A stretch of DNA of 64,000 nucleotides. Source: Syntrophales bacterium. GTDB lineage: Bacteria; Desulfobacterota; Syntrophia; Syntrophales; UBA6109. The translations under genes were made by a program, and so were the position numbers. Below are positions 1,562 to 56,787 of this stretch, one piece after another. The DNA lies in NCBI GenBank assembly GCA_035366835.1, contig DAOSIS010000005.1:52-64051 (forward strand), read 5' to 3'. A model generated the notes under the pieces. That model was given only the letters and a program-made list of their open reading frames with translations, was not told the origin of the DNA and did no database searches. Within the stretch, counting starts at the first letter, position 1; each line of letters opens with the position of its first letter.

Positions 1562-1657
1562 GCTCCCGGGCGCGTCGATGATCAGAAAGGGTCGCCTGCC
1601 CGGCGGCCGGGATGTCCCGGCAGGAAACGGGATATATCCATATTGAGGGGATCCATC

Positions 1658-2620: not shown

Positions 2621-3145
2621 TTGGATCGGAAAACGAAAGAACAGGTAGTCGCCGAGCTCAACGAGCAACTTCGGGACGTCAAGCTTGCCGTCCTGACGGG
2701 ATACTCGGGGATGGACGTGGCGAAACTCACGGCGCTTCGCAATGTCTTGCGGAAGTCGGGGACAGAGTTCCGGGTGGTGAAGAATACGCTGTTGCGGATT
2801 GCCTCCAAGGATACTTCGTTCAGTGCTCTGGAACAGCATTTCAAAGGGCCGCTGGCGGTTGTCATCAACCGCGGGGATGCCGTTGAAATGACCAAGGTGC
2901 TCACGGAATTCGCCCGGAAAAACGCCCAACTGGAAATCAAGGCAGGCATTCTCGAAGGCCGTGTGCTGTCCAAGAGCGACATCAGCTTGCTGGCCGAGCT
3001 TCCCAGCCGGGAAGTTCTTCTGGCGAAACTCCTGTCGCTGCTGGTCGGTGTACAGGGCAAGCTGGTGAACGTGCTGAGCGCGGTTCCGAGGTCATTCGTC
3101 GGGGTTCTCGACGCGTATCGGGTCAAGAAGGAATCTGCCAACTAA
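2621..3145 (+). CDS. rplJ: 50S ribosomal protein L10
   Basis: TTG start 6 nt after AAAGGAGG. Product LDRKTKEQVVAELNEQLRDVKLAVLTGYSGMDVAKLTALR..., 174 aa, a typical L10 length. Confidence 0.9.
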   Translation: MDRKTKEQVVAELNEQLRDVKLAVLTGYSGMDVAKLTALRNVLRKSGTEFRVVKNTLLRIASKDTSFSALEQHFKGPLAVVINRGDAVEMTKVLTEFARKNAQLEIKAGILEGRVLSKSDISLLAELPSREVLLAKLLSLLVGVQGKLVNVLSAVPRSFVGVLDAYRVKKESAN

Positions 3146-3175
3146 ACAATCATCATACAGGAAGGAAGAAGAGCG

Positions 3176-3565
3176 ATGGCAAATCAGACAACCAAAGAGG
3201 ACGTGATCAAATTCATCGAATCGATGACGGTATTGGAGCTTTCTCAGCTGGTCAAGGAGTTGGAAGAGAAATTCGGCGTGACCGCGGCGGCGCCTGTTGC
3301 CGTGGCCGCTGCAGCGGCAGCCGGACCTGTCCAGCAGGCGGCGGCGGAGGAGAAGACCGAATTCGATACCATCCTCACCGGTTTCGGGGAAAATAAAATT
3401 CAGGTGATCAAGGTCATTCGTCAGATCACCAGCCTGGGTCTCAAGGAGGCCAAGGACCTGGTGGACGGCGTGCCCAAGCCGATCAAGGAAGCCGTCTCCA
3501 AGGACGAAGCGGCCGACATCAAGAAGAAGATCGAGGAAGCCGGCGGAACCGTCGAAATCAAATGA
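3176..3565 (+). CDS. rplL: 50S ribosomal protein L7/L12
   Basis: 129 aa with Ala-rich hinge ([15 protein letters not shown]) and C-terminal KEAKDLVDG...[10 protein letters not shown]. Confidence 0.96.
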
Positions 3566-3626
3566 TGCAGGGTTGACGATGTGAAGCGGCGACAGGGGGC
3601 CTTCCAGGCCCTCGCATGGAGATGAT

Positions 3627-3657
3627 CTCGGCGTCCTGCAAGTGGCGGGACGCCGAG
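3627..3657 (+). promoter_or_regulatory. rplL-rpoB intergenic hairpin (candidate attenuator)
   Basis: Perfect 10-bp stem CTCGGCGTCC/GGACGCCGAG with an 11-nt loop and no U-tract. An attenuator is known at this position in E. coli. Confidence 0.35.
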
Positions 3658-3668
3658 CCTGCTAAAGG

Positions 3669-7769
<4,101 letters not shown>

Positions 7770-39688: not shown

Positions 39689-41782
39689 ATGATGCGGACA
39701 CCTTACAGACAGGACAGCGACTTCAATCCATCCGTTCACCAGCGCCCGCTGCTCGCCGCGTGGAAACGGTTCCTCGAAACCGGTCAGATCACGGCCGACG
39801 TCATTCCGCCGCACATCGCCGAATCGTGGAAACAGAGCCGCGCGAAGGGCGTGGATCCTTTTGTCTGCTCACGCTCGGCGCGACTGGACCCGGGCAGCTT
39901 TGAACGGCGCATCGCCGACCTGCAGTATCTCATCTACATCGCAAAACCTTTCATGGAAAAGATCTATCCGTCGCTCGATCCCCGTCGCTACCTGGTGGTC
40001 CTGTACGACGCGGAGGGATATCATCTGCTGCGGATGGGACGGGTGGCCGCGTTCGAGCGTATCAGCGGTTTTCACATCGAGGGGGGGATCTGTTTCGGGG
40101 AGAACAAGATCGGGACCTGCGGCTTCTCGCTCGTCAAGAAGTTGCGAAGACCCGTTCAGATCGCCGGCTGCGAACACTATGCCGCTTTCATGCATCGCAT
40201 CGTCGGCTCCTACGCGCCCATCAACGACCCCGTCGAGGGCGCCCTGATGGGTGTCATCGGCATTGCCGGGGCGATGACCATGCCCAACCAGCAGACGTTG
40301 GATACGATCGCGTCCGCCAGTGCGGCCATTGAAGATTCCATCAAGCAGGACCACGCACGGCGGATCTTCTCGGTGCAGGGCCGGACGCTGCAGACCATGA
40401 TCGATCACCTGGACGAGGGGATCGCCCTGATCGACCGGGAAGGAAGAATCGCCGAAATCAATCTCGCGGCGAGGACCATTTTCGGCCTCACCGGCGAGGA
40501 CGCGAAAGGTCGGCGGTTGGAGGACATTCTCTCTGCGCCCGAGGCGAGGGGGCTTCTCTCGCTCGCGGAAGGCGATTCGGCCGGATGCGATCGCCCGCTG
40601 GAGATCAGCATCCGCAGCAAGCCCTATGCCGTCCGGGGCCGGCCGGTCCGGGATCCGAAAGAGGGAGACATCGGCCGGATGATCGACCTCAAGGCGCTGC
40701 CGCCGTCTGCAAGAAGTGCGAAGAGGCCGGCGGCGGATCAGGATCCGGTCAAACCGCCGAAGGAAAGCCATCCTCCGCGGAATCCCGTCAGGGAGACCGG
40801 CGCGACGAAGGTCTTCTTTGACACGATGATCGCGTCGAGCTCCAAGATGACGGAGTTGATCGGACTCGGCAGGATGGCGGCGCGCTCCGGCGCCAATATC
40901 ATCATCGAAGGGGAAAGCGGCACCGGCAAGGAGATCTTTGCGCACGCCATACACAACGAGAGCACCCGCAGGGACGCTCCCTTCGTGGCGATCAACTGCT
41001 CGGCCATTCCCGGTGAATTGATGGAGTCCATCCTCTTCGGCCACGAGCAGGGGGCGTTCACGGGGGCACACCAGACGCACATCGGAAAATTCGAGCTTGC
41101 GGACGGCGGCACCGTCTTTCTGGACGAGATCGGCGAGATGCCGGCCGCCATGCAGGCGAAGCTGCTCCGCGTGCTGGAGGAAAAAACGATCGAACGCGTC
41201 GGCGGCAAGAAGGTCCGCCGCGTCGACGTGCGGATCGTCGCCGCTACGAACCGCAACCTCCTCAAGGAAATCCACGCCAACCGGTTCCGCGAGGACCTCT
41301 ATTACCGTTTGAATGTCTTTCGCATCGCCCTGCCCCCCCTGCGCGAACGCAAGCAGGAGATCCGTCATCTCGTCCCCTTCTTCGTGCGGCAGTTCGGTCC
41401 CCTCTTCAACAAGACCGTGGAAAGGATCCAGGAAGACTACTACCGTTGCCTCATGGACTACCCCTGGCCCGGGAACATCCGCGAACTCCGCAACGCCGTC
41501 GAATACTCGATCGCCGTTCTGAACGGCCCGGTCCTGGCGGCGGAGCACGTCCTCGGCTTCTTCCGCCAGCCTTCCGCCGACGGCAACGATCCGGCGGACA
41601 GGACCTTCCCGGGAGGACCGTTGCCCGGCCTCCTCCTGTCGGAACTGGGAGACGCGGCGATCCGCAACGCGCTCAGTGCCGCCGACGGCCACAAGACGAA
41701 GGCGGCGCGGATGCTGGGGATCAGCCGGACCACGCTGCACCGTAGACTCAAGCGAATGGCGGTGCAAGGACCGCCGCAATAG
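39689..41782 (+). CDS. sigma-54-dependent enhancer-binding transcriptional activator (AcoR-like sensory N-terminus, PAS, AAA+, Fis-type HTH)
   Basis: Walker A GESGTGKE, GAFTGA loop (EQGAFTGA), Walker B VFLDEIGEM, C-terminal HTH KTKAARMLGISRTTLHRRLKR. Start taken at MMRTPY inside ORF 39539..41782. Confidence 0.9.
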   Translation: MMRTPYRQDSDFNPSVHQRPLLAAWKRFLETGQITADVIPPHIAESWKQSRAKGVDPFVCSRSARLDPGSFERRIADLQYLIYIAKPFMEKIYPSLDPRRYLVVLYDAEGYHLLRMGRVAAFERISGFHIEGGICFGENKIGTCGFSLVKKLRRPVQIAGCEHYAAFMHRIVGSYAPINDPVEGALMGVIGIAGAMTMPNQQTLDTIASASAAIEDSIKQDHARRIFSVQGRTLQTMIDHLDEGIALIDREGRIAEINLAARTIFGLTGEDAKGRRLEDILSAPEARGLLSLAEGDSAGCDRPLEISIRSKPYAVRGRPVRDPKEGDIGRMIDLKALPPSARSAKRPAADQDPVKPPKESHPPRNPVRETGATKVFFDTMIASSSKMTELIGLGRMAARSGANIIIEGESGTGKEIFAHAIHNESTRRDAPFVAINCSAIPGELMESILFGHEQGAFTGAHQTHIGKFELADGGTVFLDEIGEMPAAMQAKLLRVLEEKTIERVGGKKVRRVDVRIVAATNRNLLKEIHANRFREDLYYRLNVFRIALPPLRERKQEIRHLVPFFVRQFGPLFNKTVERIQEDYYRCLMDYPWPGNIRELRNAVEYSIAVLNGPVLAAEHVLGFFRQPSADGNDPADRTFPGGPLPGLLLSELGDAAIRNALSAADGHKTKAARMLGISRTTLHRRLKRMAVQGPPQ

Positions 41783-41930
41783 TCTTATTCTGACACACCG
41801 GGTCTTGTCACTTGTTTCATAGAGAAACAACCTTGCCCCCTCCACGAATCCGTTCCCTGCCGGCCTTGTCGAGGCCAATATCCTGAATTGACGAGTCAAT
41901 CGGTTTTCGGCCGGCGGCTGCATTTCCGGC

Positions 41931-41946
41931 TGGCATAGGTCCTGCA
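41931..41946 (+). promoter_or_regulatory. sigma-54 (-24/-12) promoter
   Basis: TGGCATAGGTCCTGCA against consensus TGGCACG-N4-TTGCW. GG and GC are at the exact 12-nt register, 66 nt upstream of the ATG at 42012 and directly downstream of the sigma-54 activator gene. Confidence 0.75.
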
Positions 41947-42011
41947 CAATCCCCCTGCGAACGGCGAACGGGGCGCCGTTCAAATTCCCGAAAAAGGAGG
42001 AACGGGTCTTC

Positions 42012-43277
42012 ATGGCAAGAATTTACGAACATCAGGGGAAGCAGTTGCTCGCCGGAGCCGGACTTCGAGTTCCGCGGGGCGAAGTCGCGACGACGCCGGA
42101 GCAGGCGAAGGAAATCGCCCGCAGGATCGGCAAACGCGTGGTGATCAAGGCGCAGGTGTGGACGACGGGGCGGTTCAAGGCCGGCGGGATCAAGTTCGCC
42201 GATACGCCGGAGGAAGCCTGCGTGCGGGCCCGGCAGGTCCTGGAGACGAACATCAAGGGACTTCCCGTGACCAAGGTCCTTGTCGAGGAACTCCTGAAAG
42301 TCGCCCACGAGTACTATGTCGGCATCGTCGTGAACTCGTCCGTGAACATCAAGGCGCCGGTTCTTGTCTTCAGCACGGAGGGCGGAACGGGAATCGAGGA
42401 GGTCGCGGCGAGAAACCCCGAACGTGTCGGGAAACTCCTGATCGATGCGATCGACGGACTGGACATCGGGAGGGTCCGCGACCTTCTGACCCGGATGAAG
42501 GTCGAAGAGGAGCGGCGGGAAGAACTCGCCAACGCGATCTGGGGCCTCTACCGGGTCTTCCGCGATTACGATGCCCGGTCCATTGAGATGAATCCCCTGG
42601 TCTGGACGGACGACGGCCAGGCGTACGCGGCCGATTGCCACGTGACGCTCGATGACGGCTCCATCTTCCGCCACCCCGAATTCGGCATCGAGGTTCCGCG
42701 CGATATGGAGCGGGAACCGACGAAGCTGGAAAAGCTCGCCTGGACGCATATCGAGGAGAGCGATTATCGCGGCACGGGTTATTTTGCGCAGATGGTGACG
42801 GACTACAGGGGGGACAAGGTCTACGTCGGTTTTCACGGGATCGGCGGCGGCGGTTCGATGCTGGGGGCGGCGGCCCTGATCAACAAGGGTTTGAAGATCG
42901 CCAACTACGCCGACACCAGCGGGGATCCGCCCGCCAGCAAGGTGTACAAGGTGGTCAAGGCGATCTTTTCCCAGCCGATCTCCGCGTACGTCATGACCGG
43001 CGCCTGCCTTGCGAACCAGGAGCAGTGGTATCACGCATTCGCGCTGGTCAAGGTCCTCCGGGAGGAGCTCCGGGACCGTCCGGGATTCCCCGTTCTCATC
43101 CTGATTGCCGGCAACCGGGAAAAGGAGGCCATTCAAATTCTGAAAGACGGGCTGAAGGACATGGATATCCGCCTGGAGATCTACGGCCGGGAGTACATCT
43201 ATCGTTCCGACTACATCGGTGAACGCGCGGAAAAGCTCATCGCCGAGTACTTGAATGAAGAAAGGGGGGCGGAGTGA
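42012..43277 (+). CDS. ATP-grasp beta-like subunit of an acyl-CoA synthetase (NDP-forming), ATP-citrate-lyase / citryl-CoA-synthetase branch
   Basis: 421 aa; MARIYEHQGKQLLAGAGLRVPRG...VVIKAQVWTTGRFKAGGIKF (ATP-grasp). C-terminal half HGIGGGGSMLGAAALINKGLKIANYADTSGDPPASKVY resembles the ACL '..ANYGEYSGAPSE..' segment rather than the SucC '..ANFLDVGGGA..' segment (recalled from memory, no alignment run). Confidence 0.75.
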   Translation: MARIYEHQGKQLLAGAGLRVPRGEVATTPEQAKEIARRIGKRVVIKAQVWTTGRFKAGGIKFADTPEEACVRARQVLETNIKGLPVTKVLVEELLKVAHEYYVGIVVNSSVNIKAPVLVFSTEGGTGIEEVAARNPERVGKLLIDAIDGLDIGRVRDLLTRMKVEEERREELANAIWGLYRVFRDYDARSIEMNPLVWTDDGQAYAADCHVTLDDGSIFRHPEFGIEVPRDMEREPTKLEKLAWTHIEESDYRGTGYFAQMVTDYRGDKVYVGFHGIGGGGSMLGAAALINKGLKIANYADTSGDPPASKVYKVVKAIFSQPISAYVMTGACLANQEQWYHAFALVKVLREELRDRPGFPVLILIAGNREKEAIQILKDGLKDMDIRLEIYGREYIYRSDYIGERAEKLIAEYLNEERGAE

Positions 43278-43278
43278 A

Positions 43279-43620
43279 ATGAACGCGAAACGGGACATTC
43301 TTTCCTTTGAGACGAAATGCATGAAAGTCACGATCGACTATTCCCGGTGCGAGGCGGCCCGTTCCGGGGCCGCGAATCCCGGCTGCGGCTTTGCCTGCGT
43401 CAAGGCGGACCGCATGTATGACCGCGGTCTGCTGCGGATCGAGGGCCGCCGGCCGGTACTGGCGGTTCCTCCGGGAGACGCGAAAAAGATCTCCAACGAA
43501 TCCCTGTCCTGGGAGTATGCCTGCAATCAGGCGGGTTGCGGTGCCATCAGGATCGCGGTCCCTTTCCCAGGGCTTGAAGAGTACCGGAAGACGGTCGACC
43601 TTACGGGAAGAAGGAGGTAG
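43279..43620 (+). CDS. small Cys-rich protein of unknown function (possible degenerate ferredoxin-like / Fe-S or Zn module)
   Basis: 113 aa, ATG 1 nt after the upstream stop, ends 4 nt before the next start. Six Cys: C-x9-C-x11-C-x3-C ... C-x4-C (IDYSRCEAARSGAANPGCGFACVKAD ... EYACNQAGCGAIRI). I recognise no family. Confidence 0.5.
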   Translation: MNAKRDILSFETKCMKVTIDYSRCEAARSGAANPGCGFACVKADRMYDRGLLRIEGRRPVLAVPPGDAKKISNESLSWEYACNQAGCGAIRIAVPFPGLEEYRKTVDLTGRRR

Positions 43621-43624
43621 CGCC

Positions 43625-44527
43625 ATGTCCATCATTCTGCAGGAAGGGACCAGCGTCATGATCCAGGGCATCACGGGACGCTTCGGCCAATTCGTGGCCC
43701 GCAACATGCTGGACAACGGCACCAACGTCGTCGCGGGAGTGACGCCGGGCAAGGCGGGGCAGAGGGTATGGGACATCCCCGTCTACGACACGGTGCGCGA
43801 GGCATGGGACGCCCACGGACCCATCGAGACCGCGCTGATCGTCGTGCCTGGTCCCGAGGCCAGGACGGCGCTGATGGAGACCGTCGGCGTCCCCTTCAAG
43901 AACGTTCTCATGGAGATCGAACGCGTCCCCCTCCACGATTCGCTGGCCTGTATCGCCGCCTGCAAGAGGGCGGGAATCCGGCTCATCGGTCCGGGCTCCG
44001 GCGGCATCGTATGCCCGGGCAAGGGTACGCTGGGACTGTTCGGATCTCCGGAAATGGCGGAAATCGCTTTCCATCCCGGCAGAATCGGTGTAATCTCCCG
44101 CAGCGGCGGCCAGACGAGCACCCTGTCCTACGAAGTATGCAAGGCCGGTTTCGGGATCAGCACGGCCGTCAACCTGGGCTCCGAGTCCGTCCTGGGGACG
44201 ACCTTCTCCGAGCTTCTTCCGCTGTTCCAGGAAGACGCCGAAACGGATGCCGTCGTCTACTACGGCGAGATCGGCGGCGTGATGGAAGAGGAGGCGGCGG
44301 ATCTGATGCGTGCGGGCGGGTATCGCAAGCCGCTGGTCGCCTACATCGCCGGGCGCGGCCTGCCTGCGGGCATTCGCTTTTCCCACGCGAGCGCCATCAT
44401 CGAGGGAGGCCGGGGCACCGCCGAAGGGAAGGTGGGGGCCCTCAAGGGGGCCGGGGCGCATGTCGTAGACAACCCCGCCGATATCGGCTCCACGCTGAAA
44501 AAGATATTCTTGAACGTGACTTTCTGA
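43625..44527 (+). CDS. CoA-binding alpha-like subunit of the acyl-CoA synthetase (SucD/CcsB-like)
   Basis: 300 aa, co-linear with E. coli SucD as I remember it: MSIILQEGTSVMIQGITGRFG...GVTPGKAG...VISRSGGQTSTLSYE...; phospho-His loop is FSHASAII instead of MGHAGAII. Confidence 0.85.
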   Translation: MSIILQEGTSVMIQGITGRFGQFVARNMLDNGTNVVAGVTPGKAGQRVWDIPVYDTVREAWDAHGPIETALIVVPGPEARTALMETVGVPFKNVLMEIERVPLHDSLACIAACKRAGIRLIGPGSGGIVCPGKGTLGLFGSPEMAEIAFHPGRIGVISRSGGQTSTLSYEVCKAGFGISTAVNLGSESVLGTTFSELLPLFQEDAETDAVVYYGEIGGVMEEEAADLMRAGGYRKPLVAYIAGRGLPAGIRFSHASAIIEGGRGTAEGKVGALKGAGAHVVDNPADIGSTLKKIFLNVTF

Positions 44528-44546
44528 ACACAAGGGGAGGGTGGGA

Positions 44547-45479
44547 ATGGCTGATGTGAGAATCTGGAGATCGCTGCTTTTCGTGCCGGCCAACAACTGG
44601 AAGATGCTCAACAAGGCGACCGGGGAGCAGGAAGACGCGGTCATCATCGATTTGGAGGACGCCTGTCCCATGGCGGACAAGGAGACGGGACGGACATTTG
44701 CGAGGGACATTTCCCCCCTGTACAAGAAGCAGGGGATCGACGTCCTGGTGCGGATCAACTCCCTCCAGACGCGGGGGCTTACCGCCGAAGACATCAAGAT
44801 CATTGTCCGGGAAGAGCTGGACGGTGTCGTGCTGGCGAAGACGGAGACGGAACAGGACATCCGCGAAGTCGAAAAGCTTCTCGCCGATGCGGAGCAGGCC
44901 AGCGGGCAGACGGGGAAGACCTTGATTCTGCCCCTTCTCGAATCGCCGAAGGGCGTCCAGAACGCCGGCGAAATCGCCGCCGCGAGCGAACGGGTGGCAG
45001 GGCTCGCGTTCGGCGCGGCGGACTTCATGCGCGAGATGGGGGCCGGGTTCGCCGTCACCAAGATGAACCCCGATGAGTATGCGCCCTTCCTGGCTTATCC
45101 CCGTTCGGCGATCTCGGTTGCGGCGGCTGCTGCCGGCATTCTGGCCATCGACACGCCGTTCTTCGGGACGCTGACCGATCAGGAGAGGCTGGAGCGCGAG
45201 GCCCATGCGGTCAGGCTCATGGGTTTCAAAGGAAAACTGGCAATCCATCCCCGACAGCTGGAGACGCTGAATCGCGTGTTCTCGCCGTCCGAGGAGGATG
45301 TCGCACTGAGCCGGCGGATGATCGAGGCCTACCTGAAGGCGGAGGCCGAAGGGAAGGGCGCGGCGACCCTGGACGGCAAGATGATCGATGTCGCGATGTA
45401 CAAGATGGGGATGGAAACCGTCGCCAAGGCGGAGGGGATCGCCGCCAGGGCCGTCCGCAGGAAGGCGGAATCCAACTGA
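44547..45479 (+). CDS. HpcH/HpaI-CitE family acyl-CoA lyase (citryl-/malyl-/citramalyl-CoA lyase-like)
   Basis: 310 aa; RSLLFVPANN...AVIIDLEDA...PLLESPKGV...LAFGAADF... matches the CitE/Mcl metal and substrate motifs. ATG 44547 is preferred over GTG 44541. Confidence 0.85.
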   Translation: MADVRIWRSLLFVPANNWKMLNKATGEQEDAVIIDLEDACPMADKETGRTFARDISPLYKKQGIDVLVRINSLQTRGLTAEDIKIIVREELDGVVLAKTETEQDIREVEKLLADAEQASGQTGKTLILPLLESPKGVQNAGEIAAASERVAGLAFGAADFMREMGAGFAVTKMNPDEYAPFLAYPRSAISVAAAAAGILAIDTPFFGTLTDQERLEREAHAVRLMGFKGKLAIHPRQLETLNRVFSPSEEDVALSRRMIEAYLKAEAEGKGAATLDGKMIDVAMYKMGMETVAKAEGIAARAVRRKAESN

Positions 45480-46664: not shown

Positions 46665-48461
46665 ATGGGAAACAAGCTGCAAATCTCTGCAACGCTGAAC
46701 TGTGATGTCCTGATCGTCGGAGCCGGGGGCGCGGGTCTTCGCTGCGCCGCGCACCTTCTCGAACACAAGCCGAACTTGAAGATTTTCGCGGTGACGAAGG
46801 TGTCGCACCCGCAGAAGTCCCACACGAGCACGGCCCAGGGCGGGCTGGCCGCCGTGGATCCGAAGGACAAGACGGACAAGCCGATCTACCACATGTTCGA
46901 TACCTGGAAGGGCGGGGACTGCTCTTCCGACCAGGACGTGGTCAAGAAGATCGTCGAGGGCGGCTGGGACGAGATCCGCTGGCTGGAGGGCCGCGGGATG
47001 CACCTGAGCCGGGACGAGGAGGGAAACATCAGCAAGCGCCAGTTCGGGGGGCACACCAACGAATTCGGCAAGGGAGACGTGTTCCGCGCCGTCTTCGAGG
47101 CCGACCGGACGGGCAAGGGCATGATGGACACGGCCTGGGGCGAGGCGCTCAAGCACGGGTCGGTCTTCATCAATTCCGCGGTCGTCACGGAGCTCCTCTT
47201 CAACGAGGGGTGCTGCGTCGGCGCGGTGCTCTACAAGATCCGGGACGGCGAATTCGTCACGGTGCTGGCGAAGGCGACCGTTCTGGCGACGGGCGGCTCG
47301 GGTCAGGTTTTCCGGATCACGACGAACTGCCGCGGCAACACGGGCGACGGCATCGCCGTGGTTCTCCGTGCCGGACTGCCGGTCATGGACCCCGAGGCCG
47401 TCCAGTTTCACCCGACGGGGATCGTGGGGCCGGGGATCCTGGCCAGCGAGGCCCTGCGGAGCGAAGGCGGGATCCTGCGCAACAAGGACATGGAGCCGTT
47501 CATGGACCGCTACGCCCCGAAGATGAAGAACCTCGCGCCCCGGGACATCGTGGCCCGCTCCATCGAGACGGAGATCCGGGAAGGCCGTGGCATCATGAAC
47601 CCCGACCACCAGATCGAGCACGTCTGGATCGACCTGCGGCATCTGCCGGACTACGTCCACGAAGTGAAGCTCAAGGAAGTGGCGAGCTTCTTCAAGACTT
47701 ACGCCAATCTGGATTCGCGCACGCAACTCTGCCCGGTGCGTCCTTCCAACCACTACCACATGGGAGGCATTCCGACCAACGCCTTCGGGGAGGTCCAGGG
47801 CGACAGCGGCCGGATCGTGCCGGGCCTCTTCGCCGTGGGGGAATGCGCCTGTGCGAGCTTCCACGGATTCAACCGCCTGGGCACCAACTCCCTGCTGGAA
47901 CTCCTGACGATGGGCCGGTACGTGGGAGAGCGCGTCGAGACCTATCTTTCGGAAAAGCCGATTTCCGCCCCCAAGGGCGCGGGCGAGGCGAGCCTGTCCC
48001 TGTTCTCGTCGTATCTGTCGGGAACGGGGAAGGAGAACGTCGGGCGGGTCCGTCTGGAGATGCGCGACATGATGACGCGCAAGGTCGGCGTTTTCCGGCA
48101 CGAAAAGGGCGTCTCCGAAGCGATCCAGGAGTTGATGGCGTTCAAGGAGCGGGCGGGGAAGACGTCGGTATCGGTCCGGGATGCGAGATGGAACCAGGAA
48201 TTGCTCGAGCGGTGGGAACTGGACAACCTGCTGGACAATGCCATGACCATGGCCCAGGGGGCGCTGCTCAGGAAGGAATCGCGCGGCGCGCATTTCCGTG
48301 AGGACTACCCGGTGCGCAGCGACGAGTTCCAGTACCATACCCTCGTGTCCATGACCGAATTCGGCAAGGTGACCTTCGGGAGGCGTGCCATCGACATGAG
48401 CCTCTTCAACGCCAAGGACGAATACTCCGAGCACTTCAAGATCATCCCGAGGAAGTATTGA
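46665..48461 (+). CDS. succinate dehydrogenase/fumarate reductase-type flavoprotein subunit (paralogue 1, Gln-type)
   Basis: 598 aa; DVLIVGAGGAGLR, FAD-linking SHTSTAQGG, FHPTG, LRSEGG, HYHMGG, NRLGTNSL, ESRGAHFREDYP. Internal ATG of ORF 45915..48461 after AAGGGGGA. Confidence 0.9.
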   Translation: MGNKLQISATLNCDVLIVGAGGAGLRCAAHLLEHKPNLKIFAVTKVSHPQKSHTSTAQGGLAAVDPKDKTDKPIYHMFDTWKGGDCSSDQDVVKKIVEGGWDEIRWLEGRGMHLSRDEEGNISKRQFGGHTNEFGKGDVFRAVFEADRTGKGMMDTAWGEALKHGSVFINSAVVTELLFNEGCCVGAVLYKIRDGEFVTVLAKATVLATGGSGQVFRITTNCRGNTGDGIAVVLRAGLPVMDPEAVQFHPTGIVGPGILASEALRSEGGILRNKDMEPFMDRYAPKMKNLAPRDIVARSIETEIREGRGIMNPDHQIEHVWIDLRHLPDYVHEVKLKEVASFFKTYANLDSRTQLCPVRPSNHYHMGGIPTNAFGEVQGDSGRIVPGLFAVGECACASFHGFNRLGTNSLLELLTMGRYVGERVETYLSEKPISAPKGAGEASLSLFSSYLSGTGKENVGRVRLEMRDMMTRKVGVFRHEKGVSEAIQELMAFKERAGKTSVSVRDARWNQELLERWELDNLLDNAMTMAQGALLRKESRGAHFREDYPVRSDEFQYHTLVSMTEFGKVTFGRRAIDMSLFNAKDEYSEHFKIIPRKY

Positions 48462-48497
48462 ATGAAGGCTTCTTCGCCGCAAATACAGGAGGAAGGT

Positions 48498-49208
48498 ATG
48501 TCCAAGATCTTCTCGCTGACCCTGACGATCAAGCGCTACGATCCCGATGCGGAGAAAACCTGGTTCCAAACCTACAAACTGGAGGCGGGGGGCATCCTGC
48601 GCTTCGTCGATCTGTTCCGGAGAATCAACGTGGAGCAGGACGCCACGCTGAGCTGGGCGTCCTCGTGCGAACACGGGCAGTGCGGGAGCTGTTCCGTGAA
48701 GATCAACGGCCGGCCGATGCTGGCCTGCGAGCTTCTGGTGGAAAACGCCGTCGAGCTGTTCGGCACCACGGAATTCAAGATCGAGCCCGTGACGGTCGCT
48801 CCGGTGATCCGGGACCTGGTCGTGGATTGGGAAAAGGCCTACGAACGGGTCCACCGCGCGAAACCCTACGTGATTTCGCCCAAGCAGCTTCCGCCCGGCG
48901 TCACGGAGCACGTCATTTCCCCGCAGGAAATCGCCAGGTACGAAGACGCCACGCGCTGCATCAACTGCTTCTGCTGCGCCACCGCCTGCATCAGCTCCCA
49001 CAGGAGCTTCATCGGCCCCAATGCCGCCATGGCCAGCATCGTGCGCATGATGGATACGAGGGAAACGGCGAAGGAGGAAAGACTGGATCTCCTGTACAGC
49101 GAAGAGGGGGTCTACCGCTGCCACACCTCGAAGGCCTGCACGCACGTCTGCCCCAAGAAGATCGACGTGGCCCACTTCATCGCCCTGGCGAAGGAAGGGG
49201 AGTTTTGA
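48498..49208 (+). CDS. complex II iron-sulfur subunit (paralogue 1)
   Basis: 236 aa; [2Fe-2S] SCEHGQCGSCSVKINGRPMLAC, then CINCFCCATAC and CHTSKACTHVCP clusters. ATG after AGGAGGAAGG. Confidence 0.9.
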   Translation: MSKIFSLTLTIKRYDPDAEKTWFQTYKLEAGGILRFVDLFRRINVEQDATLSWASSCEHGQCGSCSVKINGRPMLACELLVENAVELFGTTEFKIEPVTVAPVIRDLVVDWEKAYERVHRAKPYVISPKQLPPGVTEHVISPQEIARYEDATRCINCFCCATACISSHRSFIGPNAAMASIVRMMDTRETAKEERLDLLYSEEGVYRCHTSKACTHVCPKKIDVAHFIALAKEGEF

Positions 49209-49279: not shown

Positions 49280-50629
49280 ATGCCGAAGGAAATTCTCGCC
49301 GACCAACTGGCAAAATATTTCTGCGGGCTTCGCTTCGAAGACCTGGGAAAAGAGCATGTCGCCAACATGAAGGGGTACATCCTGGACTGGCTGGGTTCGG
49401 CCTACGCGGGCAGGGATCTGCCGCCGGTCCGGATGATGCGGAGCGTCGCCGGTAGTCTCGGCGGCAAGCCGGAGTCGACCTCCATTCCCGACGGCACCAA
49501 GACCAGCTGCATCCTGGCGGCGCTGGTGAACGGCGCGACATCCCACGTCGTCGAGATGGACGACCTGCACCGGGAGTCGATCCTTCATCCGGCCTGCGCC
49601 ATCCTTCCCGCGGTCCTCGCCCTTGGGGAGCGGCAGCACGCCCCGGGCAGGGATCTGATCCTTGCGGCCTCCGCCGGCTACGAAGTGGGCATCCGCGTGG
49701 CCCTGGCCGTGGGGACGAGCCATTACTACTCCTGGCATACGACGGCGACCTGCGGGACCTACGGCGCGGCGGCGGGTGCGGCCAAGCTGCTGGGCCTCGA
49801 CGAGGATCAATTCGCATGGGCCCTGGGGTCGGCGGGAACGCAGGCGGCCGGACTCTGGGAATTCCTGGTGGAATGCGCCATGAGCAAGCAGCTCCACCCG
49901 GGCAAGGCGGCGATGAACGGTCTCCTGGCGGCCCTGCTGGCGAAGGAGGGGTTCACGGGCGCACGCAGGATCCTGGAAGGCGAGAAGGGGTTCTTCCGCG
50001 CCACGTCGAAGAACTTCGATGAGGGCAAGTGCACGGCGGACCTCGGAAAGGTCTTCCACGGCGACCGCAATTCCATCAAGTACCACGCCTCCTGCGGTCA
50101 CACCCACTCCGCCATCGACGCCGTGCAGCTGGCCACCGGCGGCAGGACCCTGAAAGCGGCGGAGGTCGCGGACGTCCGCATCCAGGTTTATCAGGCGGCG
50201 ATCGACCTCCTGGGGAACGTCGAGGCGAAGTCGCCGTACCTCGCGAAATTCAATCTGCCGTTCTGCATCGCCACGGCGCTGCTCTTCGGGCACGTCCGGC
50301 TGGACGATTTCAGCGAAGCGCGCCTGGCCGACGCCGAGATCCGGAACCTGATGTCCAAGGTTTCTTTCACGGTCGATCCCGAATTGACGAAGGCCTATCC
50401 GCGCAAGTGGCCCGCCCGCGTGACGATCACCCTTGCCGACGGTCGGAAGCTGGAGGCCTGCAACGAATACCCGAAAGGCGATCCGGAAAATCCCCTGACG
50501 GCGTCCGAACTGGTCGCGAAATTCAAGAGCCTTACCGCCGGGATTCTCTCCGGGGCGCAGGCAGACCGGATCGTCGAGAAGGTGATGAATCTGGAAAAGA
50601 TCGCCGATGCAAACGAACTGCTCTCGTGA
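49280..50629 (+). CDS. MmgE/PrpD family protein (2-methylcitrate dehydratase-like)
   Basis: 449 aa; ...LDWLGSAYAG...ALVNGATSHVVEMDDLH...HPACAILPAVLALGE... family pattern. Substrate unknown. Confidence 0.85.
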   Translation: MPKEILADQLAKYFCGLRFEDLGKEHVANMKGYILDWLGSAYAGRDLPPVRMMRSVAGSLGGKPESTSIPDGTKTSCILAALVNGATSHVVEMDDLHRESILHPACAILPAVLALGERQHAPGRDLILAASAGYEVGIRVALAVGTSHYYSWHTTATCGTYGAAAGAAKLLGLDEDQFAWALGSAGTQAAGLWEFLVECAMSKQLHPGKAAMNGLLAALLAKEGFTGARRILEGEKGFFRATSKNFDEGKCTADLGKVFHGDRNSIKYHASCGHTHSAIDAVQLATGGRTLKAAEVADVRIQVYQAAIDLLGNVEAKSPYLAKFNLPFCIATALLFGHVRLDDFSEARLADAEIRNLMSKVSFTVDPELTKAYPRKWPARVTITLADGRKLEACNEYPKGDPENPLTASELVAKFKSLTAGILSGAQADRIVEKVMNLEKIADANELLS

Positions 50630-51692: not shown

Positions 51693-53000
51693 CTACGGAA
51701 GGCCGGCCAGCTTTCTCGCCAGGGACGGCACGCCGTTGAGCAGTTCCTCTTCCTTGCCCATCGAGCTTCTCAGCGATCCGATGCCGAGCGTTCCCAGCGA
51801 CTGGATGTCCGTCCGCTTCGCCTGAAGGACGTACAGGCTGCCGAGCACCGCCAGCTTTCCCGTCACCGTTTCGTTGGCCGCCAGCCACTTTCCCATTTGG
51901 ACGGCCTGGCCTTCGTCGATCATTCCCGATTGCTGAAGTTTCAACTCCTCCATCACCTGGACGATATTCTCCCGGTTCACGAGCAGGAACTTGCCCAGTT
52001 CGTGGAGTTCCTCACGCAACGCCTCGGTCAGAATCATGGCGACGACATTGAGCTGTTCGCCGGCGTCGAAGTCGTACACGACGAGACGGCTTTTTCCCGT
52101 CGTACCGGCCTGGTGCTCTTCGAGCATGGCCTGGAGACCGGGGGGGATTTCATCCTTTGCCGGCTTGTCCGTCCGAAGGTCCGCCCTCCTTTCTGGCGGC
52201 GGTGCCGCAGGGGCAGGGGGCGACGGTGTCTTGGACGGCGCCTTCTCCGGAGCGGGGACGGGCTGCAGCAAATCGCGTTCGGTCGGCTTTGCCTCCTCCA
52301 CGGGCCGGGCGGATGAGGCCGGGGGCGTCCTCTCCACGGCGGGCAGGGGCGGCCGTTCCGGCGCTTTCGGGTCCGTCCCCCCGGGAACCGCTTTTCCCTT
52401 CCGGACCGCTGTCGCGAACATGTCTCCCTTGGCCGCCATGAACAGCTTCCGATAGGCATTCCGCATCATTTCCTGCGAGCGGGCCACGCCCTCCGCAAAG
52501 GATTCGCCTACGGTCGTGGTTGAAGCGATGCTTTCCCGGAAGATCCTGCCGGAAGAGAGGCTGATGATGATCTGCTCGGCGGATAAGACGCTCCTTACGG
52601 GGAACTTGCGTTCGAAGATGTTGATGTAGTCCGCATGCAGGGCGCGGCCGACGTCCTTGGCCAGCTTCCAGTTGCCAGCGGACCATCGCCACCCCTCGAT
52701 GTCCTGATTCCCCAACACGGCGGCGACCTCGTCCCGGGGGATGACCTGGTAGAATCCTTTCATCTGCAGCGTTCTGGAAACGTGCCGATATTGGTTATCG
52801 GAGAAGTCCTTGTCCGACACGGGCCATGCGCCGGCCGGATGAGGCGTGGAGGTGACCGGAAGCACGAAGACGCGGAGCTTCGCCGTCGGCGGCGGTGCCG
52901 GAAGCGTATTCAACCGGATTTCCGAGCATCCCGCGAGGATGGCGGTAAGGCACATCGTCAAAAGGGAGGCAACCGCCAGGCGCGGAAACGGCTCCTTCAT
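51693..53000 (-). CDS. two-domain lipoprotein with Pro-rich linker; the C-terminal domain is, by sequence impression only, LpoB/CsgG/FlgO-like
   Basis: Lipobox LTAILAGC|SE after MKEPFPRLAVASLLTM. About 90-aa Pro/Ala/Glu linker (PERPPLPAVERTPPASSARP...PSPPAPAAPPPERR). C-terminal SRLVVYDFDAG...NVVAMILTEALREEL...LVNRENI...ELKLQQSG. Start is the internal ATG of ORF 51693..53081. Confidence 0.7.
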   Translation of the reverse strand: MKEPFPRLAVASLLTMCLTAILAGCSEIRLNTLPAPPPTAKLRVFVLPVTSTPHPAGAWPVSDKDFSDNQYRHVSRTLQMKGFYQVIPRDEVAAVLGNQDIEGWRWSAGNWKLAKDVGRALHADYINIFERKFPVRSVLSAEQIIISLSSGRIFRESIASTTTVGESFAEGVARSQEMMRNAYRKLFMAAKGDMFATAVRKGKAVPGGTDPKAPERPPLPAVERTPPASSARPVEEAKPTERDLLQPVPAPEKAPSKTPSPPAPAAPPPERRADLRTDKPAKDEIPPGLQAMLEEHQAGTTGKSRLVVYDFDAGEQLNVVAMILTEALREELHELGKFLLVNRENIVQVMEELKLQQSGMIDEGQAVQMGKWLAANETVTGKLAVLGSLYVLQAKRTDIQSLGTLGIGSLRSSMGKEEELLNGVPSLARKLAGLP

Positions 53001-53017
53001 GGAACGCTCCTTGGACG

Positions 53018-53437
53018 CTATTTCACGAGCATCACCGGTGACGGGCACAGCAGCACCACCTTGTAGCTGATGGTGCCCCATCCCTGCGTCAGGTCTTTCG
53101 GATCGATGCGGTGGGAATTCATGACGACGACGTCCACCTTCCGGGCGGTCACATATTTCAGGATTTCCTTGACGCGGTCGCCGAAAATGATCTCTTTGCG
53201 GACGCTGACGGAGGTTTTCTTGGAAGAAGCCGCCAGTTTGTCGAGCGCACGTTCGGCGCGTTTTTCCATTTTGCGGTAAAAGCTTTCAAGCTCGGAGAAC
53301 TCCACATCGGCGACAGTCTGTATCACGTGGAGCAGCGTCAGGGAAGCGCCGGAGCATGCGGCCATCCGCATTGCGACGTCGATGGCCTTCTTGTTCTTGT
53401 TCGAAAAATCTACGGGGACCAGAATGTGCTGAAACAT
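53018..53437 (-). CDS. universal stress protein (UspA family)
   Basis: 139 aa; MFQHILVPVDFSNKNKKAIDVA...LTLLHV...VVVMNSH...GWGTISYKVVLLCPSPVMLVK. Confidence 0.88.
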   Translation of the reverse strand: MFQHILVPVDFSNKNKKAIDVAMRMAACSGASLTLLHVIQTVADVEFSELESFYRKMEKRAERALDKLAASSKKTSVSVRKEIIFGDRVKEILKYVTARKVDVVVMNSHRIDPKDLTQGWGTISYKVVLLCPSPVMLVK

Positions 53438-53745: not shown

Positions 53746-53879
53746 AGGTCAATGCTTTTATACAATGCGTATATGTTCATGACGACAGAATTCGCAAAAA
53801 CAATTCACCCAGCCCATTTCCCAACGTTCAGCACGAGTCTTTGAATCCTAATTCTTCTGAGAGAAAGGAGCACCCCAGC

Positions 53880-55334
53880 ATGGCCAAGATTGATCTCAAG
53901 ATGACGGACCTGAAGAAGGCCTTCCCGAAGAACTTTACGCCTGCGCAGATTGCAAAGGGGCAGACGATTTTTCTGAAGGAACTGGCCTATGAAGCGCACA
54001 AGTACTACGGCGGCAAGATGATGACGGTTCCGAAGGCCGGTCTGTACAGCTTCAATTGGTTCAACGTTTACTACAGCCCCGGCGTTTCGAAGATCTCGAC
54101 CTCGATCCGCGACGACAACAACCTCTCTTTCGAACTCTCCAACCGCGCGAACCTCGTCGCGGTGGTCAGCGATTCCACGCGCGTCCTGGGCGACGGCGAC
54201 TGCACGCCCCCCGGCGGCCTGGGAGTCATGGAAGGCAAGGCCTTCCTGATCAAGTATCTCGGCGGTCTCGATGCGATCGCACTTTGCGTGAACAGCTACA
54301 ACGCAAAAGGCGAGCATGACGCCGACAAAATCATTGAGTTCGTGAAGATGCTGCAGCCGAGCGTCGGCGCGGTCAACCTCGAAGACATCTCGCAGCCGAA
54401 CTGCTTCAAGGTCCTGGACACCCTGCGGGAAGAGTGCGAAATTCCCGTCTGGCATGACGACGCGCAGGGCACCGCCTGCGTGACCCTCGGCGGTTTGATC
54501 AATGCCCTGAAGGTCGCCGGCAAGCAGATGGGCAAGGTGAAGATGGCCTTCTTCGGTGCCGGGGCCTCCAACACGACGATCGTCCGTCTGATCCTCGCGG
54601 CAGGTGCCGATCCGGACAATATCGTGATGTGCGACTCCAAGGGAGGACTGCACAAGGGCCGCAAGGACATCGAGGCCGACAAGCGCTACTACCGCAAATG
54701 GGAAATCTGCGAGGCAACGAATCCCAACAGGATCAACAACATTCAGGATGCCATGAAGGGTGCCGACGTGCTGATTTCGCTTTCCACGCCGGGACCGGGC
54801 GTCATCAAGGCTGAGTGGGTGAAGACCATGGCGAAGAAGTCGATCGTCTTTGCCTGCGCCAACCCCGTTCCCGAAATCTATCCCTACGAGGCGAAGGAAG
54901 CGGGCGCCTACGTCGTGGCCACCGGCCGCGGCGACTTCCCCAACCAGGTGAACAACTCCATCGGCTTCCCCGGCATCCTCAAGGGCGCCTCCCTGGTGAA
55001 GGCGTCGAAGATCACGGATGGGATGGCGATCGCGGCCGCCAAGTGTCTGGCCAAGACGGCCGAGAAGCGCGGTATCAATCCCGACGACATCGTCCCGAAG
55101 ATGACGGAATGGGAAGTCTTCCCCTCCGAAGCCAGGGACGTGGCCATGCAGGCCATCAAGGACGGCGTCGCCAGGGTGAAGATGTCCGCCAAGGAAGTCT
55201 ACAAGAAAGCCTATGATGACATCGCCGAGTCGCGAAAACTGACGGAGACCCTGATGGCGAAGGGTTTCATCAGGAAACCGCCCGTCAGCATGCTGGAAAA
55301 GGCGCTCAAGAAGGCGATTGCTCAGGCCAAATAG
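53880..55334 (+). CDS. maeA: NAD(P)-dependent malic enzyme (short, non-PTA-fused form)
   Basis: 484 aa; ...VVSDSTRVLGDGDCTPPGGLGVMEGKAFLIKYLGG..., dinucleotide fold FFGAGASNTT, ...NNSIGFPGILKGA. ATG after GAAAGGAG. The gene symbol is generic. Confidence 0.88.
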   Translation: MAKIDLKMTDLKKAFPKNFTPAQIAKGQTIFLKELAYEAHKYYGGKMMTVPKAGLYSFNWFNVYYSPGVSKISTSIRDDNNLSFELSNRANLVAVVSDSTRVLGDGDCTPPGGLGVMEGKAFLIKYLGGLDAIALCVNSYNAKGEHDADKIIEFVKMLQPSVGAVNLEDISQPNCFKVLDTLREECEIPVWHDDAQGTACVTLGGLINALKVAGKQMGKVKMAFFGAGASNTTIVRLILAAGADPDNIVMCDSKGGLHKGRKDIEADKRYYRKWEICEATNPNRINNIQDAMKGADVLISLSTPGPGVIKAEWVKTMAKKSIVFACANPVPEIYPYEAKEAGAYVVATGRGDFPNQVNNSIGFPGILKGASLVKASKITDGMAIAAAKCLAKTAEKRGINPDDIVPKMTEWEVFPSEARDVAMQAIKDGVARVKMSAKEVYKKAYDDIAESRKLTETLMAKGFIRKPPVSMLEKALKKAIAQAK

Positions 55335-55347
55335 ATAGGGGGTTACC

Positions 55348-56187
55348 ATGAGAGAGGTCCACGTCAGTGAAATCGTTCCAATTGTAAAAAAACTGCTGAT
55401 CGATGCAAATTACAAGATTGGTCAAGACATCGTGGACGCCTTCGACAAGGGGATTCAGAAGGACGAATCGCCCGTCGCAAGGGAAGTTCTGAAGGAGCTC
55501 AAGCAGAACGTCGGAATTTCCGCGGAAGGCGAATATCCGATCTGTCAGGACACGGGATTGGCCGTCCTGTTCGTCGATATCGGTCAGGATGTCCACATCG
55601 TGGGCGGAAACATCAGGGAAGCGCTCAACGAGGGCGTCCGCCAGGCCTACAAGGACGGCTACCTGAGGAAATCGTCCTGTGATCCGTTTACCAGGAAGAA
55701 CACGGGGGACAATACCCCGGCGATCGTCCACTATGACATCGTTCCCGGCGACAAGATCAGAATCATGGCCGTTCCCAAGGGCGGCGGCGCGGAGAATATG
55801 AGCCGCGTGCACATGCTGGCACCCTCGGCGGGCGTTGAAGGCATCAAGGATTTCATCGTCAACCGGATGAAGGAAGCAGGCTCCAATCCCTGTCCTCCCA
55901 CGGTTGTCGGCGTCGGGATCGGCGGAACCTTCGAGAGAACGGCTATCCTGGCGAAAAAGGCACTGTTGAGAAAGGTGGGGGAGCGCCATCCCGATCCGGT
56001 CATTGCGAAACTCGAGCAGGAGGTCCTGGAGCGGATCAACAAACTCGGGATCGGGCCTATGGGGTATGGCGGCACGACCACGGCGCTCGATGTCTTCTTC
56101 GAGGTGGAGCCCTGCCACATCGCCAGCCTTCCGCTGGCGGTGAATGTACAGTGTCATGCAAACAGGCACAAAGAAGCGACGATCTGA
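55348..56187 (+). CDS. class I (Fe-S) fumarate/tartrate/mesaconate hydro-lyase, alpha subunit
   Basis: 279 aa; ...YPICQDTGLAVLFVDIG...PKGGGAENMS...NPCPPTVVGVGIGGT... Confidence 0.88.
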   Translation: MREVHVSEIVPIVKKLLIDANYKIGQDIVDAFDKGIQKDESPVAREVLKELKQNVGISAEGEYPICQDTGLAVLFVDIGQDVHIVGGNIREALNEGVRQAYKDGYLRKSSCDPFTRKNTGDNTPAIVHYDIVPGDKIRIMAVPKGGGAENMSRVHMLAPSAGVEGIKDFIVNRMKEAGSNPCPPTVVGVGIGGTFERTAILAKKALLRKVGERHPDPVIAKLEQEVLERINKLGIGPMGYGGTTTALDVFFEVEPCHIASLPLAVNVQCHANRHKEATI

Positions 56188-56200
56188 ATGGAGGATTAGC

Positions 56201-56758
56201 ATGGCAAACGAGATTCGATTGAAGACCCCCTTGACCGATGCAGACGTCGACAAATTGAAGATCGGCGACAAGGTCCTGATTACGGGCGTCATTTATACGG
56301 GAAGGGATGCGGCTCACAAACGGATGATCGACCTCATCAATCAGGGCAAGGAATTGCCCATCGATGTCAAGGGGCAGATCATCTACTACGTCGGCCCGAC
56401 CCCGGCCAGGCCGGGCAAGCCGATCGGCTCCGCGGGACCGACGACGAGCTACCGAATGGACGCCTACGCCCCGAAGATGATGGAACTGGGGATGAAGGGC
56501 ATGATCGGTAAGGGAAACCGCGCTCCCGAAGTCATCGCGGCGATGAAAAAATACAAGGCCATCTACTTCGGCGCCACGGGCGGCGCCGGCGCCGTCCTCG
56601 CCAGGAGCATCAAGAAGGCGAAGGTCGTCGCTTACGAGGACCTGGGACCCGAGGCCATCCATCGGTTGGAGGTCGAAGATTTTCCGGCGGTCGTCATCAA
56701 CGACACCAAGGGAAACGACCTCTACGTGGAGGGCGCAAAGAAATACCGGAAAGACTGA
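56201..56758 (+). CDS. class I (Fe-S) fumarate/tartrate/mesaconate hydro-lyase, beta subunit
   Basis: 185 aa; ...GDKVLITGVIYTGRDAAHKRM...YYVGPTPARPGKPIGSAGPTTSYRMD...IGKGNR... Internal ATG of ORF 56144..56758. Confidence 0.88.
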   Translation: MANEIRLKTPLTDADVDKLKIGDKVLITGVIYTGRDAAHKRMIDLINQGKELPIDVKGQIIYYVGPTPARPGKPIGSAGPTTSYRMDAYAPKMMELGMKGMIGKGNRAPEVIAAMKKYKAIYFGATGGAGAVLARSIKKAKVVAYEDLGPEAIHRLEVEDFPAVVINDTKGNDLYVEGAKKYRKD

Positions 56759-56787
56759 AGACAAATACTCGATAAAGGTGGGTGGAT

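Follow-up and report, generated by a model that had tools for sequence, protein, structure and literature searches.

A small protein, probably ferredoxin-derived, encoded between the two subunit genes of a distinct clade of acyl-CoA ligases

The window, that is, the whole stretch of DNA that was analysed, comprises 64,000 nucleotides of a Syntrophales bacterium (contig DAOSIS010000005.1, assembly GCA_035366835.1). It contains a cassette of four genes encoding, in this order, the beta-like subunit of an acyl-CoA ligase, a small protein hereafter called gamma, the alpha-like subunit of the ligase and an acyl-CoA lyase (Table 1). The original prediction had placed a small ORF between the two ligase genes with gaps of one and four nucleotides, and this is indeed what is read in the sequence. 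The stop codon TGA of the beta-like gene (43275-43277) is followed by a single base (43278) and by the ATG of gamma, and four bases (43621-43624) separate the stop codon of gamma from the ATG of the alpha-like gene. Together with the Shine-Dalgarno sites, one abutting the beta stop and the other lying within the 3' end of the small ORF, this spacing has the appearance of a classic translationally coupled arrangement. An alternative in-frame start at ATG 43255, chosen by some gene callers (P0001), gives a protein of 121 aa and a 23-nt overlap with the beta-like gene. This start was dropped in favor of 43279 on the basis of the N-termini of the homologues and of the NCBI records of a 98%-identical protein, which is 113 aa long.

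Table 1. Coordinates of the cassette and of the neighboring features in the window
Feature	Position	Strand	Length	Description and basis
Sigma-54 activator gene	39539/39689..41782			MimR_N/PAS/Sigma54_activat
Sigma-54 -24/-12 promoter-like element, tentative	41931..41945	+		TGGCATAGGTCCTGC; GG-N10-GC spacing, 67 nt 5' of beta start
Beta-like ligase subunit	42012..43277	+	421 aa	ATP-grasp_2 and ACL-type citrate-binding-like C-terminal domain (Pfam)
Shine-Dalgarno site of small ORF	43271..43274	+		GGAG, abutting beta stop (sequence read)
Small ORF (gamma)	43279..43620	+	113 aa	ATG 43279, TAG 43618-43620 (sequence read, ORF list)
SNESLSWEYA block of gamma	43492..43521			Residues 72-81
Shine-Dalgarno site of alpha-like gene	43612..43617	+		AGGAGG, within 3' end of small ORF (sequence read)
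Alpha-like ligase subunit	43625..44527	+	300 aa	CoA_binding and Ligase_CoA domains (Pfam)
HpcH/CitE-family acyl-CoA lyase	44541..45479	+	312 aa	Pfam PF03328, 7.7e-42; fourth gene of the cassette
Antisense ORF	41817..43331	-	504 aa	ORF list
Antisense ORF	43237..43776	-	179 aa	ORF list
Antisense ORF	43601..45061	-	486 aa	ORF list
SdhA/FrdA-like flavoprotein, first paralogue	46671..48461	+		With SdhC- and SdhB-like partners
SdhB-like gene	48462..49208
MmgE/PrpD-family gene	49280..50629	+
Unrelated gene	51693..53081	opposite
Malic enzyme	53841..55334
Class I fumarase, two genes	55348..56758
SdhA/FrdA-like flavoprotein, second paralogue	56782..58533	+		After malic enzyme and class I fumarase

The small ORF is a real and strongly conserved gene. 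A search of 5.8 billion proteins returned 92 homologous protein clusters (E 1e-16 to 1e-70) of about 105-116 aa, all of them unnamed or 'hypothetical' and without a Pfam domain, and 68 clusters were matched by a family profile among 1.84 billion representatives. More than 200 homologues are known, every one of them unannotated. The nearest named relatives belong to Syntrophaceae bacterium PtaU1.Bin231 and to a Syntrophales MAG. The dN/dS ratio is 0.083 against a 70%-identical homologue (L021) and 0.21 against a 98%-identical one; in more distant pairs dS is saturated and dN amounts to 0.32-0.38. The GC content by codon position (0.57/0.52/0.75) is like that of the adjoining genes. The original prediction had named dN/dS and codon usage resembling those of non-coding sequence as evidence against it, and the opposite was found.

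It is true that GC-rich DNA gives many long spurious ORFs, including several antisense ones that overlap the small ORF, and this would be the argument for a chance reading frame in a GC-rich intergenic spacer rather than a gene. This hypothesis was rejected on the basis of the homologous clusters, of a dN/dS of 0.08 with saturated dS, and of the GC by codon position, with a GC3 as in real genes against the high GC1 and low GC3 of the antisense ORFs. The conservation of the protein from Syntrophales to Thermoproteota and a confident AF2 model stand against it as well, and a chance origin can be considered virtually impossible. The three antisense ORFs over the cassette are themselves best read as non-coding. 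The high GC1 and lower GC3 of the 504-aa ORF are the signature of the shadow of a real gene in GC-rich DNA, and the 486-aa ORF has a weaker profile (0.67/0.54/0.71); this reading is adopted because these two ORFs, the ones for which the profile was computed, oppose well-supported genes. As a separate observation, two homologues of 71 aa (P0091 and P0092, on contigs of 99 kb and 529 kb) are truncated and diverge after residue ~55 ('...LRIEGKPAGSGRLP...'). Frameshifts or errors of assembly, on contigs that are otherwise long, appear to be the cause.

The genes on either side of gamma encode a ligase that, judged by its sequence, is a distinct clade of succinyl-/citryl-CoA-synthetase-like, NDP-forming acyl-CoA ligases, always accompanied by the small protein. 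In the beta-like subunit, PF08442 is matched at 1e-54 and PF16114 with 33 bits (cut-off 26.8); the top PDB sequence matches are the beta subunit of Thermus aquaticus succinyl-CoA synthetase (SCS; 3ufx_B, 8.8e-60) and the large subunit of Hydrogenobacter thermophilus citryl-CoA synthetase (6hxq_B, 1.2e-35). The alpha-like subunit matches the NCBIfam model of SCS alpha at 6.9e-79, below its cut-off, and the PDB entry 2yv2_A at 1.3e-70. Its translation contains FSHASAI, which we take to be a putative phosphohistidine motif by analogy with MGHAGAI of Escherichia coli SucD. The NCBIfam equivalog cut-offs of SucCD and MtkAB are not reached by the beta-like subunit (212 bits vs 370 for SCS, 145 vs 604 for Mtk), nor is that of the SucCD alpha subunit by the alpha-like subunit (265 vs 336). 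The lyase is matched in the PDB by malyl-CoA lyase (5ugr, 7.7e-37) and by CitE (1sgj, 6.8e-31). The original prediction of an ORF that splits normally adjacent subunit genes was therefore correct as to position, but an ordinary SucCD pair with an inserted gene is not what is found, the ligase being of a distinct clade.

A conventional SucCD-like pair lies at 1581-3675 (-) on the same contig as the cassette at locus L003, with 33% and 42% identity to the beta-like and alpha-like subunits of the window. Its two genes are adjacent without a small ORF between them, and gamma can therefore be regarded as specific to the cassette clade.

The synteny of the small ORF is obligate. A sample of one genome per species, scanned with the motif CGFACVKA, provided 42 loci, and all 42 display the order beta, small ORF, alpha and CitE-like lyase as far as the contig reaches. 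The bacterial loci come from MAGs of Desulfobacterota, Dehalococcoidia, Anaerolineales (Chloroflexota) and Myxococcota, and the archaeal ones from Bathyarchaeia, Heimdallarchaeota, Nezhaarchaeota, Thermosphaera, Ignisphaera and other Thermoproteota. In a reverse test, metagenome contigs were searched with an alignment of the beta subunits alone. The small ORF directly follows beta in 78 of the best 80 loci inspected, and the other two contigs end too early. In the loci recovered, homologues of gamma do always sit between such ligase genes, as the original prediction had proposed to verify, and the ORF is kept in the syntenic loci of related genomes, where the conserved cysteines are C24, C36, C40 and C82. 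Across loci, the median gap between the stop of the small ORF and the start of alpha is 6 nt, and the conserved core of the small protein begins ~21 nt past the beta stop.

In some lineages the small protein is not only encoded with the ATP-grasp beta subunit but joined to it. In-frame beta-gamma fusions of ~535-547 aa were found at eight of the genome loci, six of them archaeal (L029, L031 and L039-L042) and two from Desulfobacteraceae (L002 and L003), as well as in 5 of the beta-anchored metagenome loci. Full-length fused representatives are P0095, P0127 and P0139, and several C-terminal fragments share the junction. Such Rosetta-stone fusions to the C-terminus of beta designate the small protein as a subunit or domain of the ligase, and they suggest that unfused gamma would likewise be physically associated with it. 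The proposal of a translationally coupled accessory subunit is thus supported by strict synteny and by the in-frame fusions. Three loci, labelled Methanobacteriota (L008), Dehalococcoidia (L001) and Heimdallarchaeota (L022), carry bacterial-type, Desulfobacterota-like cassettes with 54-68% identity. As these contigs belong to MAGs of archaea and Chloroflexota, either horizontal transfer or contamination during binning is suggested.

The cysteines of gamma offer a first indication of its ancestry. Six had been listed, in the arrangement C-x9-C-x11-C-x3-C ... C-x4-C, and this spacing is exact (residues 14, 24, 36, 40, 82 and 87); the relevance of all six did not hold, since four of them are conserved. 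In the window subfamily of 83 sequences, C24, C36 and C40 are conserved at 99% or more, and position 82 is Cys in 88% and Asp in 11%. C14, which is Cys in 58%, is not conserved, and position 87 has Asn as consensus, Cys being rare and outside the three commonest residues. At the other end of the family, the most distant members (e.g. P0096, P0104 and P0127) carry C-x2-C-x4-C-x3-C ... C-x2-C-x2-C-x3-C, which corresponds to two full ferredoxin motifs with 8 Cys, and they are likewise encoded between beta- and alpha-like genes. In the Cys-rich relatives, Pfam shows only models of the Fer4 clan, apart from a few scattered weak matches; these often span both motifs, with E 1e-4 to 1e-2 and ~10-23 bits, below the gathering cut-offs of 21-35. 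An hhalign comparison of the family with Clostridium pasteurianum ferredoxin places all 8 Cys in register (39% probability, E 3e-4). The window protein itself has 4 Cys at ligand positions, not 8, and no longer contains two full CxxCxxCxxxC(P)-type motifs; it has no Pfam match even at E<=1 and no NCBIfam match. The family profile, searched against PDB sequences, gave a single and spurious match, to a proteasome-ATPase at E 0.1.

In the ferredoxin register, C24, C36, C40 and C82 of the window protein occupy the positions CI, CII, CIII and CVIII, the equation of C36 with CII resting on an 11-residue loop insertion between CI and CII. The positions CIV, CV, CVI and CVII are taken by D44, S72, S75 and W78. 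Clostridial ferredoxins bind one cluster through CI, CII, CIII and CVIII and the second through CIV to CVII. According to this scheme, all four ligands of the first site are present in the window protein, and those of the second are all missing.

The window pattern is one of several graded states. In a census of 200 family sequences, the 4-Cys window type accounts for 73 and its variant with Asp at position 82 for 8, 7 Cys are present with C44 and D72 in 28 and with D44 and C72 in 20, and about 32 have 8 Cys. The unbiased, beta-anchored sample contains 40 sequences of the C44/D72 type, 19 of the D44/C72 type and 13-14 of the window type. This gradient from 8 to 4 Cys, in the register of canonical ferredoxin motifs, supports the early impression of a degenerate ferredoxin motif. 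The small protein is best described as a divergent derivative of the 2[4Fe-4S] ferredoxins, a superfamily-level placement in which the fold assignment is supported, not proven. The initial statement that no family could be assigned is superseded to this extent, and it still holds for Pfam and NCBIfam.

The second site deserves further attention. In the 7-Cys relatives it always consists of 3 Cys and 1 Asp, by two alternative routes. Cys and Asp are swapped between the ligand positions 44 and 72 in close relatives ('VKAD...CNEC' vs 'VKAC...DNEC', in L006/L007 vs L010/L014), which suggests that these residues are neighbors at a cluster that is labile or has an Asp ligand. In the window subfamily, the second CxxCxxCxxxC motif is replaced by SNESLSWEYA, invariant in all 83 members, and the block CGFACVKADR-YDR is invariant as well. 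The invariance of SNESLSWEYA implies strong selection for something besides cluster binding, and Trp78 may perhaps fill the former cluster cavity or form an interface. Several other residues (G37, F38, K42, R45, R49, N73, E74 and E79) are conserved as strongly as the cysteines, which fits an interface role.

Structure prediction is consistent with this placement. The AF2 model of the window protein, built with 91 homologues, has a mean pLDDT of 88.6 and a pTM of 0.77, and its elements follow the beta-alpha-beta-type order beta, beta, helix, helix, beta, beta, helix, helix, beta, helix. A Foldseek search of the PDB with this model gave nothing significant (E ~1). The top non-significant matches included Thermotoga maritima ferredoxin (1vjw), FwdF, oxalate oxidoreductase, HdrA, Mycobacterium tuberculosis Fdx and the delta subunit of pyruvate:ferredoxin oxidoreductase (PFOR). 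A second model, of a 7-Cys family member with a short loop (pLDDT 78), had as top matches the Fe-S domain of archaeal RNA polymerase subunit D (4ayb_D and 2waq_D, E ~0.8, non-significant), FrhG and oxalate oxidoreductase. Ferredoxin domains dominate the top lists of both models.

The surroundings of the cassette provide some information on its metabolic role. Upstream in the window are genes for a family III CoA-transferase and for the sigma-54 activator, the latter directly upstream of the promoter-like element. This element has 2 mismatches to the sigma-54 consensus in a pattern search, and matches of this stringency number 43 in the window against 50 expected, hence no enrichment; it is suggestive only because of the activator gene immediately upstream. 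Downstream of the cassette come SdhC/A/B-like genes and one gene each of the MmgE/PrpD and DHDPS families, then the unrelated opposite-strand gene, malic enzyme, class I fumarase and a second SdhA-like gene. The window thus holds two SdhA/FrdA-like flavoprotein paralogues. MmgE/PrpD-family genes, often in 2-3 paralogues, flank the cassette in 29 of the 42 genome loci, and class I fumarase-like and Sdh/Frd-like genes in a minority. Together these neighbors point to a hydroxy- or methyl-di/tricarboxylate pathway. The MmgE/PrpD family includes a methylsuccinate isomerase, according to a 2025 paper (PMC12290011). The ligase substrate could be citrate, malate, citramalate or methylcitrate, between which the neighbors do not discriminate.

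On the basis of these observations, gamma is proposed to be a ferredoxin-derived, non-catalytic subunit of a distinct ligase clade, docked on beta, carrying at most one [4Fe-4S] cluster and having a structural or redox/O2-sensitive role. The probability of this reading is estimated at roughly 0.6. The ancestor of gamma would be a ferredoxin domain of the bacterial 2[4Fe-4S] type carried at the C-terminal end of beta, where gamma is still covalently fused in some lineages, and the window lineage would have kept the ligands of one cluster site and replaced all four of the other. Translational coupling would ensure that gamma is made in fixed stoichiometry. The protein would then dock on the C-terminal, acid-binding domain of beta, with no more than one [4Fe-4S] cluster as judged from its ligand positions, and would stabilize or gate the ligase or ligase-lyase complex, contributing to its assembly, its stability or its redox/O2-dependent control. 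A function as electron carrier is improbable. The non-catalytic module is favored because the reaction of acid, CoA and NTP needs no electrons, because the fusion partner is beta and not an oxidoreductase, and because the window type has one cluster site at most. Several points can be raised against this reading. Neither a ferredoxin profile nor a structure matches the window protein with statistical significance, C36 is equated with CII across a loop insertion, and a ligase reaction has no need of a redox cofactor that would account for the retention of an Fe-S module. The invariant SNESLSWEYA block speaks for selection other than on cluster ligation. Furthermore, the two clusters of the ancestral form resemble an electron wire and are an argument for a redox partner, at least in the ancestor.

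Some of the same features could be accommodated by a scaffold without any cluster, in which the ferredoxin fold would be retained only as a structural adaptor that links beta with alpha or with the lyase, and the remaining cysteines would be relics, Zn ligands or partners in disulfides. The ancestral ligands are indeed reduced by half, with an invariant Ser/Ser/Trp in place of lost ones, and 11% of the subfamily have Asp instead of C82. The conservation of non-Cys residues equals or exceeds that of the cysteines, and no Fer4 profile signal is given by the window protein. However, the cysteines that remain are exactly the ligand set of one cluster in canonical ferredoxins, and C24, C36 and C40 are conserved at 99% or more across bacteria and archaea. 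At position 82, Asp alone commonly stands in for Cys, and Asp is known to ligate the [4Fe-4S] cluster of Pyrococcus furiosus ferredoxin. Disulfides are unlikely in hosts that are apparently anaerobes. This scaffold is accordingly held to be unlikely, even if a number of observations speak for it.

Two further explanations were considered. As an electron-transfer subunit, it would couple the ligase (or ligase-lyase) to a redox partner such as the neighboring Sdh/Frd-like enzyme or a ferredoxin-dependent step; the ancestral form and many extant relatives do have the two cluster sites typical of electron wires, and the window, like about 8-10 of the 42 loci, has Sdh/Frd-like genes beside the cassette. 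This hypothesis is quite improbable, given that the window type has one site at most, that most loci are without Sdh/Frd neighbors, that the chemistry of ligase, lyase and PrpD-family enzymes is non-redox, and that it is the ligase beta subunit, not an oxidoreductase, to which gamma is fused. Even less credible is that gamma shares no more than a transcript with the ligase and is an independent small ferredoxin, or a maturation factor, for other enzymes, for instance Sdh or the class I fumarase. In its favor, Fe-S enzymes are encoded nearby in the window, namely this fumarase and the SdhB-like protein, but the place of the small ORF between beta and alpha is invariant in ~120 loci regardless of the other neighbors, in-frame fusion to beta occurs, and the family was never found outside the cassette among the loci recovered. 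The preferred reading remains that of a ferredoxin-derived, non-catalytic ligase subunit. A bolder extension, rather improbable in our estimation, is that of a hitherto unrecognised Fe-S-containing class of ATP-coupled acyl-CoA ligase/lyases, widespread among anaerobes of both domains, in which gamma makes C-C cleavage or condensation redox-responsive, either by acting as a redox switch or, where two clusters are present, by providing an electron-transfer link to a partner oxidoreductase. If true, an otherwise non-redox, ATP-yielding step of the citryl-, malyl- or citramalyl-CoA type would be tied to the redox state of the cell.

Textbooks describe the succinyl-CoA synthetase/ATP-citrate lyase superfamily as enzymes of two subunits with a non-redox chemistry. 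A third subunit, ferredoxin-derived and strictly conserved, would define a distinct and uncharacterised ligase-lyase system, present in many uncultured anaerobes from Syntrophales, Desulfobacterales, Chloroflexota, Bathyarchaeia, Heimdallarchaeota, Nezhaarchaeota and other Thermoproteota. In metagenomic pathway calls, the cassette is probably labelled 'sucCD + citE' or 'citryl-CoA synthetase', and such labels feed inferences on reverse-TCA or anaplerotic capacity. Its recognition as a separate three-subunit enzyme would provide a concrete biochemical handle on the substrate, the direction and the possible redox control of the reaction. The series from 8 Cys to 7 Cys plus Asp and to 4 Cys would also be a natural one for studying the decay of Fe-S domains into structural modules. 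What is new is not the superfamily, which is known, but the use of a divergent derivative of it in a ligase, in a protein whose database entries all read 'hypothetical protein'.

With SucCD, citryl-CoA synthetase (CcsAB) and ATP-citrate lyase (ACL), the cassette shares homologous beta and alpha subunits, its beta having an ACL-type citrate-binding-like domain. To our knowledge, no solved or described enzyme of this family has a third subunit or an Fe-S-type domain, and no ligase of the SCS, citryl-CoA synthetase (CCS), ACL or ACD type has an Fe-S-type subunit. In the literature, searched with incomplete coverage, no ligase of the SCS, CCS or ACL type was described with a third subunit or one of Fe-S type, and this cassette was not found. 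The Hydrogenobacter system of CcsAB and Ccl is similar in that the cassette beta combines ATP-grasp and a citrate-binding domain, both PF08442 and PF16114 being above cut-off. It differs in two respects: the cassette beta scores lower to the CCS large subunit than to T. aquaticus SCS beta, and the cassette lyase belongs to the HpcH/CitE family whereas H. thermophilus Ccl is of a citrate-synthase-like family. The delta subunit of the 2-oxoacid:ferredoxin oxidoreductases (OFOR) recalls gamma in that it is a small dicluster ferredoxin whose gene lies among those for the subunits of a CoA-dependent enzyme, and ferredoxin domains of oxalate oxidoreductase and PFOR are among the non-significant structural matches of gamma. 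The clusters of OFOR, however, carry catalytic electrons, whereas gamma is hosted by a non-redox ligation enzyme and has lost one cluster site.

The bacterial-type 2[4Fe-4S] ferredoxins, such as clostridial ferredoxin, resemble gamma in core size, in the predicted beta-alpha-beta-type order and in Cys register, and the distant members of the gamma family carry both complete four-Cys motifs. The window protein departs from them by having 4 of the 8 Cys, an 11-residue CI-CII loop and extra N- and C-terminal elements, and gamma would be a dedicated ligase subunit or domain instead of a free electron carrier. The 7Fe and Asp-ligated ferredoxins, of the Azotobacter FdI type or as in P. furiosus, have sites with 3 Cys (and Asp). 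They recall the nearest relatives of gamma, with 7 Cys and an Asp (D44 or D72), and the Asp82 found in part of the window subfamily; the likeness is sequence-based, the Asp of the gamma family alternates between 44 and 72, and the window lineage has lost the site entirely. The best functional analogy may be the ferredoxin-like domain of archaeal RNA polymerase subunit D. There, a ferredoxin-derived domain is part of a non-redox enzyme, is thought to be structural or O2-regulatory, and has lost cluster ligands in a lineage-specific manner. Its host enzyme is unrelated to the ligase, and no sequence relationship with gamma can be detected beyond the shared superfamily.
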